From positions 65,037-129,036 of the forward strand of contig CAYYEX010000001.1 of the NCBI GenBank assembly GCA_964471165.1: a stretch of DNA of 64,000 nt, in the 5' to 3' direction. Both the position numbers and the translations under genes were made by a program. This document shows, in pieces, positions 8,140 through 53,451 of the stretch. Position 1 is the first letter of the stretch. Each line of letters begins with the position of its first letter. This DNA is from an uncultured Candidatus Saccharibacteria bacterium. GTDB lineage: Bacteria > Patescibacteriota > Minisyncoccia > Phycocordibacterales > UBA2100. Under the pieces are notes generated by a model. The model was given only the letters and a program-made list of their open reading frames with translations, did no database searches and was not told the origin of the DNA.

Positions 8140-9146
8140 AACATCTTTGCGATTTGGCGCGTGCGCTCCACGGTTTCTTTCGATGTTTGGCCATTCTCCT
8201 CCTCTCGAATGTATCGCGCCAAGCGTCGACCTACCTCTGCGTATGATTCCTGCATCACAACGTCTTCGTTGATGATGCCCGCCCTGAGTCGGTTTACGCC
8301 CATGCTGGTTGCTGAAGTAATCGTGCGCAGTAACGCGCCTTCTGCGGGAAATAGTTCTGACATTCTTCTCAGAATTTCGTAGTTTTCGATATCACGATTG
8401 TAGGAGACAGCACCACTTCCATGATTACTATCGTGCATTACGTGGTCAAAAAAGTCTGCAGAAGCCGCCATAAATGCCAGGTGGAGTGGATGGTGAATCG
8501 GGAGGTCAAACACGGGAAACGTTTCGAGTTTCAAATAAAATGGAATCGAACCTTTTTTCATTAGAAAATAAAGCTGGGACAGGCATACGTTGAACTTGCC
8601 ACTGCCTCCTCCAGGACTCAAGACGATTTGAATGGGCTTCACTGCATCAATAAACGAGTTTCTATCCAGATGATGAGCAATTTGAGTGGTGTTGGTATAG
8701 TCCTCTATCTCATAAAAGTAATGCACCTCGTTACCGCGAGCCTGAATGGTGCGGATAAAATTCTGAAGCCTTGTTTCGCTTTCCCAGCCCTGCAGCAGCC
8801 TCGTGAGCGCAACATGTTTTACTTTGAGGCCACGTTTTTCGAGCTCATTCAGTGAGCGCACAGTCTCGTCGTCGTATCGTGTTTTAAAATCACCACGTAT
8901 CCGTCCGCCAAGAATGTCCTTTGCAGATACACAAAAAATCGGCTCACTCTCGGGAAGCGAAAGGACAAGTTCGAGTTTCGCGTCCTCATGATACCCGGGC
9001 AGAACGCGAGCAGCGTGTCTGTCTTGTAGAATCTTCCCCCCAAACTCCACCACTAATGAATCCGTTTTACCCTCGACGGCAGCCCGAATGGCCGCTACTT
9101 GTGCCTCAATGTAGCGAGGTGTGTCGAACCCGATTCTATCGGTCAT
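8127..9146 (-). CDS. DUF1846 (UPF0371) family protein
   Basis: N-terminus ...LVVEFGGKILQDRHAARVLPGY resembles the conserved start of UPF0371/DUF1846 proteins. Shorter than typical members. Confidence 0.45.
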   Translation of the reverse strand: MTDRIGFDTPRYIEAQVAAIRAAVEGKTDSLVVEFGGKILQDRHAARVLPGYHEDAKLELVLSLPESEPIFCVSAKDILGGRIRGDFKTRYDDETVRSLNELEKRGLKVKHVALTRLLQGWESETRLQNFIRTIQARGNEVHYFYEIEDYTNTTQIAHHLDRNSFIDAVKPIQIVLSPGGGSGKFNVCLSQLYFLMKKGSIPFYLKLETFPVFDLPIHHPLHLAFMAASADFFDHVMHDSNHGSGAVSYNRDIENYEILRRMSELFPAEGALLRTITSATSMGVNRLRAGIINEDVVMQESYAEVGRRLARYIREEENGQTSKETVERTRQIAKMLWEN

Positions 9147-16299: not shown

Positions 16300-16300
16300 T

Positions 16301-16317
16301 CTGGGGGACTTGGAATC
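16301..16317 (-). repeat. 17-nt exact copy of tRNA-Gln 3' end (GATTCCAAGTCCCCCAG), 182 nt downstream of the tRNA
   Basis: ctgggggacttggaatc at 16301-16317 equals 16499-16515. A second degenerate copy ...cttgtcccccag lies at ~16330-16345. Confidence 0.85.
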
Positions 16318-16498
16318 CCCATCGACTCATAATATCAGCCGTCGCTTCTGGGGGACAAGGAGCGCTCGCATGAGCTCGCTTTTTGAGAACCCACGGTTCT
16401 CAACGTGTCTTCGCACTGCTCTCCTCCACGGGAAACTACCGTTTCCCGCCCCCTTCACTTCCAAGTCCCGCAGGACTCGTTCATTTCATTCTCTCGTG

Positions 16499-32316: not shown

Positions 32317-32398
32317 GCCGGAGTGGCGGAATTGGTATACGCGAACGACTCAAAATCGTTTGTCGAAAGGCATGAGGGTTCGAGTCCCTCCTCCGGCA
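32317..32398 (+). tRNA. tRNA-Leu (anticodon CAA), type II with long variable arm
   Basis: GCCGGAG/CTCCGGC acceptor stem, anticodon loop CTCAAAA, T-arm GAGGGTTCGAGTCCCTC, discriminator A. Confidence 0.85.
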
Positions 32399-32404
32399 CA
32401 AAAA

Positions 32405-32440
32405 TACAAAAGACGGGACATTGTCCCGTCTTTTGTATTT
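32405..32440 (+). terminator. Rho-independent terminator after tRNA-Leu(CAA)
   Basis: AAAAGACGGGAC-attg-GTCCCGTCTTTTGTATTTT. Confidence 0.7.
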
Positions 32441-32573
32441 TGTAGAGCGGGGTGGAACGAGAAAGTGAGGACTGGGGCCCCGCGAGTACGCGGGGATGTC
32501 CGAGCAGGGCCGAGCGGAGAAAAGTTCTGACGAGAACTTTTCGAGCGCTTGGCCGAGTCCCTCCTCCGGCACA
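32441..32573 (+). repeat. ~130-nt tRNA-Leu-associated structured element ending in a 20-nt exact copy of the tRNA-Leu(CAA) 3' end
   Basis: Contains hairpins CCCCGCG-agta-CGCGGGG and GAAAAGTT-ctgacgag-AACTTTTC. Ends cgagtccctcctccggcaca, equal to the tRNA at 32381-32400. Homologous element at 53261..53393. Confidence 0.8.
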
Positions 32574-38013: not shown

Positions 38014-38057
38014 AAAACTCCCCGCATGGCGCATCTTTCATTAGGGTGCGGGCGATG

Positions 38058-38073
38058 TAGGAAACTCTCTAGC
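38058..38073 (-). repeat. 16-nt exact copy of tRNA-Trp 3' end (gcgggcgatgtaggaa), ~150 nt downstream of the tRNA
   Basis: Identical to 38221-38236. An inverted degenerate copy (tcgattcctaca...atcgccca) lies at 38153-38195. Confidence 0.8.
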
Positions 38074-38218
38074 CTCTCAGTTCGCCGTCGCTCACTTCGG
38101 GCTGGGCACCGCCTCGCACCCGCGCGTGCTCGCGCGGGACCCGCTCCGGCGCTCGATTCCTACACGCACAGCGCCCCACGCTATGCTATCGCCCACCGTT
38201 TTCACTATGTTCAAACTT

Positions 38219-38292
38219 TTGCGGGCGATGTAGGAATCGAACCTACACTAGCGGTTTTGGAGACCGCTGTTCTACCACTAAACTAATCGCCC
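38219..38292 (-). tRNA. tRNA-Trp (anticodon CCA), CCA encoded
   Basis: Reverse complement GGGCGATTAGTTTAGTGGTAGAACAGCGGTCTCCAAAACCGCTAGTGTAGGTTCGATTCCTACATCGCCCGCCA. Anticodon loop CTCCAAA. Confidence 0.85.
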
Positions 38293-46751: not shown

Positions 46752-46814
46752 TTGAGGCCACAGCGGGAGTTGCACCCGCCCATAGCGCAATTCTACAAAC
46801 AGAGCAGACCGCCG
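46752..46814 (-). repeat. partial copy of the tRNA-Cys 3' half (36 nt identical plus cagaccgccg), ~95 nt downstream of the tRNA
   Basis: ttgaggccacagcgggagttgcacccgcccatagcg repeated at 46752-46787 and 46851-46886; cagaccgccg at 46805 and 46893. Confidence 0.85.
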
Positions 46815-46853
46815 TGCGGAATGGGATTGAGTTGAAGAATCTATATTTTTTTG

Positions 46854-46925
46854 AGGCCACAGCGGGAGTTGCACCCGCCCATAGCGGTTTTGCAGACCGC
46901 CGCGTTGCTACTTCGCCATATGGCC
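46854..46925 (-). tRNA. tRNA-Cys (anticodon GCA), unusual T-loop (G at position 55)
   Basis: Reverse complement GGCCATATGGCGAAGTAGCAACGCGGCGGTCTGCAAAACCGCTATGGGCGGGTGCAACTCCCGCTGTGGCCT. 7-bp acceptor with G-U, anticodon loop CTGCAAA, U73 discriminator typical of Cys. T-loop TGCAACT is atypical. Confidence 0.6.
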
Positions 46926-49103: not shown

Positions 49104-49176
49104 GCGCTCATAGCTCAGCTGGTAGAGCAGTCGCCTCTTAAGCGAACGGTCCCAGGTTCGAATCCTGGTGGGCGCA
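49104..49176 (+). tRNA. tRNA-Lys (anticodon CUU)
   Basis: GCGCTCATAGCTCAGCTGGTAGAGCAGTCGCCTCTTAAGCGAACGGTCCCAGGTTCGAATCCTGGTGGGCGCA. Anticodon loop CTCTTAA. Confidence 0.85.
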
Positions 49177-49190
49177 CAAAGACGAAACAA

Positions 49191-49214
49191 ACCTGGCCTG
49201 CGCCAGGTTTTTTC
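49191..49214 (+). terminator. Rho-independent terminator after tRNA-Lys
   Basis: AACCTGGC-ctgc-GCCAGGTTTTTT. Confidence 0.7.
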
Positions 49215-49343
49215 GCTTTGTGCGGGCCGGAGCCATGTCGCAAAAGCTTTTGCGACGGGCGAGGCAGGGTCGTGGAATTTTCCGAGCGGCGGCGAGGAAA
49301 ATATCCCTGACCACATGTGGCCCTACACCGGCGAGACGAGGGA

Positions 49344-53134: not shown

Positions 53135-53216
53135 GGGCAGATGGCGGAATTGGTATACGCACTAGCCTTAGGAGCTAGCTCCGTAAGGATTGGGGGTTCG
53201 AGTCCCCCTCTGCCCA
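53135..53216 (+). tRNA. tRNA-Leu (anticodon UAG), type II
   Basis: GGGCAGA/TCTGCCC acceptor, anticodon loop CTTAGGA, variable arm TCCGTAAGGATTG, T-arm GGGGGTTCGAGTCCCCC. Confidence 0.85.
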
Positions 53217-53260
53217 CAAAAATCATTAGAGCCAGGGCATGACCTGGCTCTAATGATTTT
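53217..53260 (+). terminator. long hairpin terminator after tRNA-Leu(UAG)
   Basis: AAAAATCATTAGAGCCAGG-gcatga-CCTGGCTCTAATGATTTT. Confidence 0.75.
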
Positions 53261-53393
53261 CGGGAGGTGGATGAGACGAGAAGGCGAAGGCTGGGGACCC
53301 CGCGAGCACGCGGGGATGCCTGAGCGTAGTCAGGCGGAGAAAAGTTTTGACGAAAACTTTTCGAGCGCTTGACCGAGTCTCCCTCCGCCCACA
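53261..53393 (+). repeat. ~130-nt tRNA-Leu-associated structured element (homolog of 32441..32573) ending in an 18/21 copy of the tRNA-Leu(UAG) 3' end
   Basis: CCCCGCG-agca-CGCGGGG and GAAAAGTTTT-gacg-AAAACTTTTC hairpins. Ends cgagtctccctccgcccaca. Closing stem GGCGGAG...CTCCGCC possible. Confidence 0.8.
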
Positions 53394-53400
53394 CAAATAC

Positions 53401-53434
53401 AAAAGACCGAGGAATGCCTCGGTCTTTCGTATTT
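53401..53434. terminator. hairpin terminator similar to the one following tRNA-Leu(CAA)
   Basis: AAAAGACCGAGG-aatg-CCTCGGTCTTTCGTATTT. Confidence 0.65.
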
Positions 53435-53451
53435 CGTAGAGTCCCCGTTTG

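Follow-up and report, generated by a model that had tools for sequence, protein, structure and literature searches.

The DNA directly behind tRNA-Leu(UAG), at positions 53218-53436 of the 64,000-nucleotide stretch that we analysed (the window), is best explained as one copy of a multi-copy family of non-coding structured-RNA elements. The unit of this family consists of a hairpin of ~50 nt followed by a 5′ arm, a three-way-junction core and a 3′ arm. Both arms match the host tRNA: the 5′ arm is antisense to tRNA nt 54 to ~72, with a near-invariant UCGAA at its end, and the 3′ arm is a copy of tRNA nt 56-73. The focal copy matches both covariance models built for the family (R1 and R2), begins 49 nt past tRNA-Leu(UAG) and combines the two features by which we recognise a member, namely a match to the P2-P5 core and tRNA-derived arms lying ~50 nt behind a same-strand tRNA or tmRNA. 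The family is apparently new in kind, as it has no match in Rfam 15 and a keyword search of the literature, which can miss a paper, retrieved no description of it.

The tRNA-Leu(UAG) gene carries its discriminator A at 53216 and CCA is absent from it. The order proposed in the initial annotation, in which the tRNA is followed by a long hairpin, the element and a second terminator, is borne out at 53135-53436. An intrinsic terminator scan accepted the hairpin stem behind the 3′ arm and, in part, the spacer hairpin directly behind the tRNA. Downstream of the focal copy lie the terminator and then opposite-strand ORFs. The features of this locus and of the related loci in the window are listed in Table 1.

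Table 1. Coordinates, strand and supporting evidence for the focal element, its substructures and the other copies in the window
Feature	Position	Strand	Evidence
tRNA-Leu(UAG), host gene	53135-53217	+	ARAGORN; Rfam tRNA 60.8 bits
Spacer hairpin, terminator-like (A-tract, ~18-bp stem, T-tract)	53218-53260	+	sequence; MFE -29.7 kcal/mol
Leu(UAG) copy, covariance-model match	53266-53390	+	R1 120.6 bits, R2 109.3 bits
5′ arm (5′ strand of helix P1)	53262-53280	+	folding, duplex energies, family comparison
Core domain 1 (junction AA, P2, internal loop, P3)	53281-53327	+	consensus structure with compensatory changes; covariance-model matches
P2, tandem G·A included; internal loop UGGGGA / AU	53284-53291 with 53318-53325	+	consensus structure
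P3 hairpin CCCCGCG-AGCA-CGCGGGG	53298-53315	+	consensus structure
Core domain 2 (P4, GAG/CGA tandem G·A loop with invariant GGCGGAG, P5)	53328-53373	+	
P4	53328-53336 with 53365-53373/4	+	consensus structure
P5 hairpin AAAAGUUUU-GACG-AAAACUUUU	53340-53361	+	consensus structure
3′ arm (3′ strand of helix P1)	53374-53393	+	sense copy of tRNA-Leu(UAG) nt 56-73 plus CA
3′ terminator-like hairpin	53394-53436, stem 53402-53427	+	terminator scan, homology
tRNA-Leu(CAA) gene	32317-32399	+	ARAGORN, Rfam
Paralogous unit behind tRNA-Leu(CAA)	32400-32573	+	spacer hairpin 32400-32446, element 32447-32573; 125.9 bits
Leu(CAA) copy, covariance-model match	32447-32570	+	R1 125.9 bits, R2 114.9 bits
tRNA-Trp gene, host of divergent copy	38221-38292	-	
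Divergent Trp copy	38050-38168	-	R1 38.2 bits (E 1e-9), R2 43.9 bits (E 5e-9)
tRNA-Lys gene, host of weak copy	49104-49177		
Weak, rearranged Lys copy	49207-49328	+	R1 19.2 bits (E 7e-4), R2 33.2 bits (E 2.5e-6)

The spacer between tRNA and 5′ arm measures 48-55 nt in nearly all members, and it always forms a hairpin that begins directly past the discriminator plus one C. About half of the family spacers contain a U-run of 4-5 and the rest contain none. The first hairpin had initially been taken simply as the terminator of the tRNA itself. This assignment does not hold: inner-hairpin types such as CCGGAGCATGTCTCCGG and ACGCGNAGCGT are common to the spacers of unrelated tRNAs, and the spacer is swapped jointly with the core, so that we regard the hairpin as part of the unit. 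In the core, P2 (with its tandem G·A) encloses UGGGG, the P3 hairpin and AUG, and P4 carries the GAG/CGA tandem G·A and leads to a variable P5. Copies behind every tRNA type contain the sequence GGCGGAG (or GAGCGGAG), which makes up the P4 end and the G·A loop.

In every copy the 3′ arm begins within the T-loop (nt 56-60); the initial 2-4 nt differ by core lineage, and resident tRNA sequence makes up the rest of the arm. Most family members are flanked by direct repeats of the tRNA 3′ end of 8-19 nt. Pairing of the two arms yields helix P1, which usually has mismatches at the terminal acceptor pairs (positions 70-73). Modelled on a tRNA, P1 would correspond to the stacked acceptor and T stems, with the core taking the place of the T-loop.

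Several lines of covariation support the core fold. RNAalifold applied to ten copies returned 34 pairs, 22 of them with compensatory changes. In an alignment of 43 distinct copies, 93.6% of cells were paired versus 70% in shuffles and ~40% with slid partners, 29 of the 34 pairs showed double changes and none of 500 shuffles reached the observed values; these figures are somewhat inflated because that alignment was fitted to the model. Covariation is independent in each of the five internal helices. At two P4 positions, about half of the sequences have a G-U pair; on the opposite strand these would be C-A mismatches, which identifies the tRNA strand as the structured one. Taken alone, the G-U evidence may also be compatible with a folded form of single-stranded DNA. 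The core is shown to be a structure formed at the RNA level on the tRNA strand. The deep conservation of the junction nucleotides likewise suggests that it acts as RNA, either for propagation of the element or for the cell.

A close relative of the focal copy in the window is the unit behind tRNA-Leu(CAA). Positions 53261-53393 and 32441-32573 are ~80% identical (81% in the core), both hairpins are retained and the differences are compensatory, with aaaagttC..Gaactttt versus aaaagttT..Aaactttt in one hairpin (C-G to T-A) and GGAC/GTCC versus AGGC/GCCT around the other hairpin, in agreement with the initial description of two homologous structured copies. Each element also ends in a sequence that tracks the adjacent tRNA, as had been noticed. 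The 3′ arm of the Leu(CAA) copy agrees with its own tRNA at 20/20 positions; the Leu(UAG) copy ends in CGAGTCTCCCTCCGCCCACA, identical to its own tRNA at 18/20 positions and to tRNA-Leu(CAA) at 13/20 without gaps or 17/21 with gaps. Shuffles gave a chance expectation of 0.00-0.01 for such tRNA 3′-end matches in the window, far below what is seen, so the observation is real. Simple duplication of one locus, the outcome named beforehand as contradicting it, would extend to the flanks. These are non-homologous between the two Leu loci, which therefore did not arise in this way.

The second terminator of the UAG locus had also been likened to the hairpin directly behind tRNA-Leu(CAA); this resemblance was recovered, the two having common flanks (AAATACAAAAGAC...GTCTTTyGTATTTyGTAGAG). 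The hairpin at 53394-53436 is homologous both to 32400-32446 and to the hairpin after a tRNA-Val-associated element in another contig (L015); by blastn, 53275-53426 matches L015 at 8618-8766, so that homology extends across the terminator. The initial annotation had overlooked the antisense 5′ arm, which is complementary to the T-loop, the T-stem 3′ strand and the acceptor 3′ strand of the tRNA.

Elsewhere in the window, a search with the first hairpin of the element that allowed mismatches located a third, covarying version of this hairpin 85 nt behind tRNA-Trp. The divergent Trp copy has a 5′ arm that includes GTAGGAATCGA and a 3′ arm TTCCTACATCGCCCG. Together with the weak Lys copy, this brings the number of tRNA genes carrying the element to four of the eight in the window. 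The tRNA-Gln tail repeats the 3′ end of its gene twice in part and carries related motifs but has no model score, and tRNA-Cys is followed by a plain 34-nt 3′ duplication. At ~64-76% identity the window is syntenic with a Kaiserbacteria contig and with related contigs from metagenomes. It also codes for a T4SS-pilin-type protein, and its source is therefore a CPR bacterium of Parcubacteria type.

Pattern scans and the covariance models recovered at least about 60 copies in genomes and metagenomes of Patescibacteria (CPR bacteria), where the family is, on this sequence evidence, widespread. A pattern scan of reference genomes found eight loci, six of which are true copies: one in Candidatus Kaiserbacteria, three in Saccharibacteria, one in Paceibacterota and one in an unclassified 'bacterium' MAG. 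These copies follow tRNA-Trp, Asp, Gly, Arg and His. The two remaining loci, in Dehalococcoidia (L001) and Opitutus (L005), were rejected as chance matches in GC-rich DNA that was judged coding by eye and has no tRNA near. A metagenome scan with a looser pattern returned at least 120 pattern matches, and at least about 50 further copies were confirmed by the models. Two scans of a viral contig collection gave no true copy.

The element had initially been described as Leu-associated. Its hosts are far more diverse and, among the matches listed, comprise at least 14 tRNA types and one tmRNA; beyond Leu, copies lie behind Trp, Lys, His, Arg, Gly, Ser, Val, Asp, Glu, Tyr, Pro, Cys and Met tRNAs. 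Among the 63 scored copies in the matches listed, 38 start 46-64 nt past a same-strand tRNA or tmRNA (a tmRNA in one case), and most of the remaining copies are second tandem units, carriers of extra modules or copies at contig ends. At five loci without a preceding tRNA, Rfam found nothing upstream of the element.

Comparison of copies shows the arms to be specific for the adjacent tRNA and core lineages to be common to different tRNA types, as far as can be read from sequence. The antisense arm forms a duplex with its cognate tRNA at a mean of -29 kcal/mol, versus -15.8±4.9 kcal/mol with non-cognate tRNAs and -20.3 kcal/mol with its own 3′ arm. Of the positions that distinguish sense arm from tRNA, 115 allow pairing of the antisense arm with the tRNA only and 5 with the sense arm only. 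The Arg, Tyr, His and Gly copies have 17-20 perfect antisense positions though their sense arm comprises just 4-10 nt; in other copies an 18-nt sense arm is intact and the antisense arm has partly diverged. Both arms are full in the Glu copy of L041. The two Leu copies are exceptional, with arm:tRNA energies of -13.8 and -15.5 kcal/mol that lie at background. The latter value belongs to the focal 5′ arm, which reaches -19.3 kcal/mol with its own 3′ arm.

In both Leu copies UCGA has changed to CGAG, yielding a tandem G·A in P1. The UAG copy bears substitutions relative to the tRNA on both arms, and P1 is still paired in the predicted fold (GUCUC/GAGAC and UCCGCC/GGUGGA). Since the substitutions on the two arms preserve pairing, P1 is maintained in cis in this copy. 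Core similarity, by comparison, is independent of tRNA identity, at 88% between Trp and Asp copies, 89% between Arg and Tyr copies and 87% between Gly and Arg copies of one contig.

Our comparisons of related loci further show, at the sequence level, that occupancy is patchy, that cassettes turn over between strains and that tandem and decayed copies occur. Two Saccharibacteria strains with flanks 99-100% identical (L006 and L007) differ in the block behind tRNA-Arg, which has been exchanged for a divergent variant; the exchanged block comprises the spacer, the core and the short 3′ arm, and the antisense arm is unchanged in both. In the syntenic relatives L002 and L058, tRNA-Leu(CAA) has the same 3′ end and the element is absent. 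The plain trailer behind tRNA-Leu(CAA) in L002 resembles the hairpin of the window. One locus (L008) contains two full tandem units plus a remnant, an array which suggests that new insertions arrive beside the tRNA, and decayed copies are present in the window. In L002 and L109, the direct repeat begins at the T-loop and ends with the trailer hairpin. The unit is circularly permuted between loci, since the hairpin directly behind tRNA-Leu(CAA) has its homologues behind the 3′ arm, both in the UAG copy and in the Val element of L015. No filled-versus-empty pair was found between very close strains. Taken together, the data support movement or exchange of the element between tRNA loci and strains; how it moves can be proposed from the sequences as set out below.

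Searches against known families returned little besides the tRNAs. At the gathering threshold, Rfam 15 reported tRNAs only across the whole window, and at E<=10 it gave only chance-level matches on terminator hairpins at both Leu loci; the families without a match include self-cleaving ribozymes, group I and II introns, riboswitches and HEARO/omega RNAs. With the tRNA model (RF00005) and ARAGORN only 53135-53216 scores, and nothing in 53261-53393 does so even at E<=10. Neither ARAGORN nor Rfam called a tmRNA in the window; a weak tmRNA_permuted match (13.7 bits, gathering score 47) falls on the tRNA T-arm, outside the element. A sigma-70 scan found no promoter for the element. Clustering of ORFs, rather than a profile search, within ±2.5 kb of the ~60 copies listed detected no recurrent recombinase, transposase or reverse transcriptase. 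What does recur around the copies is a set of housekeeping genes in synteny (CCA-adding enzyme, MiaA, ParB, pilin-like); genes downstream of other copies vary in strand and identity.

We rejected several further candidates. A riboswitch or 5′ leader is at odds with the terminator and opposite-strand ORFs behind the focal copy and with the inconsistent downstream genes across loci. A MITE or REP-like repeat does not fit inverted arms that are specific to the host tRNA rather than to the element, nor the independently covarying helices. The junction strands do not fit the hammerhead motif (CUGANGA/GAA/H). A group I intron would have a larger core, and no such model matches. A retron would have a long msd hairpin between core and 3′ arm and a reverse transcriptase, neither of which was seen. 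A tRNA-primer binding site was dismissed for want of a CCA complement and for the mismatches at positions 70-73. The spacer is not a reverse-complement cDNA of the native terminator, the two copies in L002 being direct and not inverted repeats. Simple Campbell-type integration with a foreign 3′ part disagrees with unit 1 of L008, where the antisense arm is of foreign type and the sense arm of resident type.

We tentatively favor the interpretation that this is a non-coding RNA element spreading among tRNA 3′ flanks, with its address in the tRNA-matched arms. The element would be transcribed with the tRNA or just behind it, co-transcription being plausible because many spacers lack a U-run, and its two tRNA-derived arms would fold into P1 and so imitate the stacked acceptor and T stems. 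It would thus behave as a selfish or semi-selfish mobile module, for which the arms would provide both address and homology. Upon DNA uptake, the tRNA body and the 3′ arm could serve as two homology arms on the same tRNA in other cells, and recombination through them would insert the spacer, antisense arm and core and leave the tRNA intact. The sense arm may be kept matched by gene conversion between the direct repeats.

Hairpin-seeded template switching is the mechanism of quasipalindrome mutagenesis. A similar process, returning at the constant TCGAA, could rewrite the antisense arm from the adjacent tRNA; it fits an arm that lies next to the spacer hairpin, stops at nt 54 and tracks the tRNA rather than the sense arm. 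Template switching does not account for the persistent internal loop at nt 70-73. Uptake recombination and template switching would account for the data without a dedicated enzyme.

Against a spreading element stand the 5′ arms of the focal and Leu(CAA) copies, which pair with their tRNA no better than background, and the lack of a recurrent recombinase, transposase or reverse transcriptase near the ~60 copies listed; moreover, concerted evolution, that is gene conversion among old, vertically inherited copies, could mimic mobility. The main rival, which is not mutually exclusive with spread among tRNA flanks, is a small RNA of host function cut from the tRNA precursor. Its P1 would imitate the acceptor/T-arm minihelix and so be accepted by RNase P, RNase Z or the CCA-adding enzyme, and the RNA or its free 5′ arm would act on the cognate tRNA or pre-tRNA as a decoy, a sponge, a sensor (of tRNA 3′ halves) or a guide for processing or modification. 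We consider such a role possible, if somewhat improbable. Core sequence, structure and junction nucleotides are conserved across distant CPR lineages (Saccharibacteria, Parcubacteria-type), as a cellular function would predict, and the long antisense complementarity of the Arg, Tyr, His and Gly copies persists beside their short sense arms; a tmRNA, which shares with tRNAs only the T-arm/acceptor part, is also followed by the element, and the many spacers without a U-run make co-transcription plausible. It is harder to reconcile with a function for the cell that only some tRNAs per genome are occupied, that relatives lack the element at the same tRNA and that decayed copies are common. Furthermore, the mismatches at positions 70-73 make the mimicry imperfect, the target strand is base-paired in the folded tRNA and a partner protein was not identified. 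We regard as unlikely a scheme that casts the core as a catalytic or protein-recruiting scaffold, with the 5′ arm as a programmable guide to the T-stem/acceptor 3′ strand of one tRNA or tRNA gene. If correct, it would reveal a bacterial RNA-guided system acting on tRNAs or tRNA genes, each guide being stored directly behind its target and used either for the element's own insertion or homing behind the gene, or for processing, modification or sensing of the tRNA.

The remaining alternatives concern the duplicated tRNA 3′ end. The unit could be a scar or miniature cargo of tyrosine-recombinase integration at the tRNA T-loop/3′ end, the duplicated 3′ part representing attL/attR. Direct repeats of the tRNA 3′ end do flank the unit (18/20 and 20/20 at the Leu loci), a tmRNA is targeted as well, the repeat extends across the trailer in L002 and L109, units are circularly permuted as if from a circular intermediate, and the tRNA-Cys duplication could be read in the same way. 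We nevertheless consider an integrase scar quite unlikely, given that protein-encoded integrase specificity leaves one core family at 14 or more tRNAs unexplained, that the model does not predict an antisense arm, that clustering of ORFs detected no integrase near the ~60 listed copies, that the insert is only ~175 nt, that the viral contig collection holds no true match and that the core covariation is of RNA type, with G-U pairs. An intron-like or back-up arrangement, in which a T-loop insertion is accompanied by a spare downstream exon, tRNA nt 1-55 pair with either 3′ part and the insertion is removed or ignored by strand-swap folding, would explain why the 3′ arm always starts inside the T-loop and the 5′ arm ends at nt 54. 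The two folds are also near-isoenergetic where the 3′ arm is full, and Patescibacteria are rich in tRNA introns (PMC13011429). This arrangement is very unlikely all the same: the upstream tRNA is always intact and of normal score, many 3′ arms are too short to complete a tRNA, and the core falls short of group I intron size and lacks an Rfam intron match. Finally, the initial annotation envisaged a Leu-specific duplicated element that GGCGGAG and CTCCGCC close into a tRNA-like minihelix. The Leu copies are indeed close relatives and the pairing can form, over 7 bp in the UAG copy and only 5 bp in the CAA copy. A helical closure exists too, between 53262-53280 and 53374-53391, so that this part of the proposal stands; the closing stem is another one, as GGCGGAG is invariant whatever the tRNA and pairs elsewhere, in the P4 end and tandem G·A loop. 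By family comparison its ability to pair with CTCCGCC of the Leu(UAG) arm is fortuitous, and with a family that is not Leu-specific the proposal as a whole is almost certainly wrong.

The element shares features with several known systems. Like integrative elements that target tRNA or tmRNA genes, it occupies a 3′-end site, leaves the tRNA intact, is flanked by a partial 3′ direct repeat and shows patchy occupancy; unlike them, it inserts ~175 nt with no adjoining integrase, uses many tRNAs per family and carries its target in antisense form together with an RNA core that covaries. With tRNA mimics (the tRNA-like domain of tmRNA, viral TLS, mascRNA) it has in common a helix resembling acceptor plus T stem that is made from real tRNA 3′-strand sequence. 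Its core, however, replaces the T-loop, whereas the inserted domain of tmRNA lies between the D and T arms; its terminal acceptor pairs are usually mismatched and it has no Rfam or ARAGORN tRNA or tmRNA match. In plant tRNA-snoRNA precursors and in the 3′ external transcribed spacer RNAs of bacterial tRNA operons, a small RNA in the tRNA 3′ trailer is released by tRNA-processing enzymes. These dicistronic tRNA-small RNAs are not known to have tRNA-copied arms or to form multi-copy families across many tRNA types.

The closest work found describes anticodon-loop group I introns in the same phylum (PMC13011429). These introns and the element are both structured RNAs at tRNA genes, with specificity by base-pairing to tRNA and mostly without a protein gene. 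The introns, which are larger and catalytic, split the anticodon loop (35/36 and other sites), whereas the element leaves the tRNA uninterrupted, has a core of ~95 nt and matches no intron model. A conserved scaffold joined to a target-specifying segment of 12-20 nt, in which copies mainly differ, also characterises the IS110 bridge RNA, the IscB/TnpB omega RNAs and the EBS of group II introns. The element differs from these guide RNAs in that it has no recombinase or nuclease gene or Rfam match and in that its terminal arms also pair with each other; the resemblance to programmable guide-plus-scaffold RNAs is thus one of analogy only.

The combination of a fixed folded core with tRNA-matched arms is the design of a programmable RNA system. 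For annotation, the duplicated tRNA 3′ ends and hairpins carry the risk of being mistaken for prophage att sites, pseudo-tRNAs or plain terminators. Patescibacteria are a large and poorly understood bacterial radiation in which the element is widespread and, with half of the tRNA genes in the window occupied, it may rank among the commoner non-coding elements in these very small genomes.

The host range of the ~125-nt element extends to tmRNA, since at locus L037 a full element lies 49 nt behind a tmRNA gene and its arms match the tmRNA 3' end. At five further loci (L095, L043, L038, L122 and L017), no tRNA was detectable ahead of the element and Rfam returned no match upstream of it, and the arms are still tRNA-derived in appearance. 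All five share the same upstream order, namely GGTTCG(A/C)GC, an AT-rich stretch of about 20 nt, CA and the usual spacer, and three of them have in common an upstream GC-rich block, ..cagtttcaagccaccacgYacgcggag...

Coordinates of the tRNA- and tmRNA-associated features
Feature	Position	Strand	Context
tRNA-Gln tail	window 16300-16497	minus	3' of tRNA-Gln
Partial tRNA-Cys duplication	window 46760-46852	minus	3' of tRNA-Cys 46853-46925
tRNA-His	L008 4393-4465		
Tandem units behind tRNA-His	L008 4217-4341 and 4043-4166		
tmRNA gene and full element	L037 7190-7744		Rfam tmRNA, 98 bits

Two tRNA tails within the window carry repeats of their own tRNA. Behind tRNA-Cys, a plain partial self-duplication located 65-70 nt downstream of the gene consists of GGCGGTCTGC followed by a 34-nt exact copy, CGCTATGGGCGGGTGCAACTCCCGCTGTGGCCTCAAA, which spans the 3' side of the anticodon stem through to the tRNA end. 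The core element is absent between the two tRNA-Cys copies, and the duplication resembles either an att-type scar or the remains of a deleted unit. The tRNA-Gln tail combines an 11-nt antisense match (GGGACTTGGAA), two sense-oriented repeats of the tRNA 3' end and a ~40-nt module, GAAGGGGGCGGGAAACGGtAGTTTCCCGTGGAGGA. In a Paceibacterota MAG, this module recurs in near-identical form downstream of tRNA-Arg(TCT) (L008 6660-6960), where a weak copy of the core comes after it, and it may represent a second module type of the element system.

Among the window's eight tRNA genes, none of those read encodes CCA, which must therefore be added post-transcriptionally; in most of them, the discriminator is followed by CA and an A-run. 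A gene of the CCA-adding enzyme/poly(A) polymerase family adjoins the tRNA-Arg(TCG)/tRNA-Gly pair at five loci (the near-identical Saccharibacteria strains L006/L007, together with L010, L030 and L106). This arrangement probably stems from conserved synteny, not from a functional connection with the element.

The two tandem units behind tRNA-His at L008 differ in the tRNA that they fit. The antisense arm of the tRNA-adjacent unit matches the form of tRNA-His found in other lineages (CGATAG), and the outer unit fits the resident tRNA-His (CTGTAG), the acceptor stem of which has an apparent A4-C69 mismatch. Because the inner arm fits a foreign tRNA-His and the outer arm the resident one, comparison of the arms suggests that the newest unit inserts beside the tRNA and that it came from another lineage.
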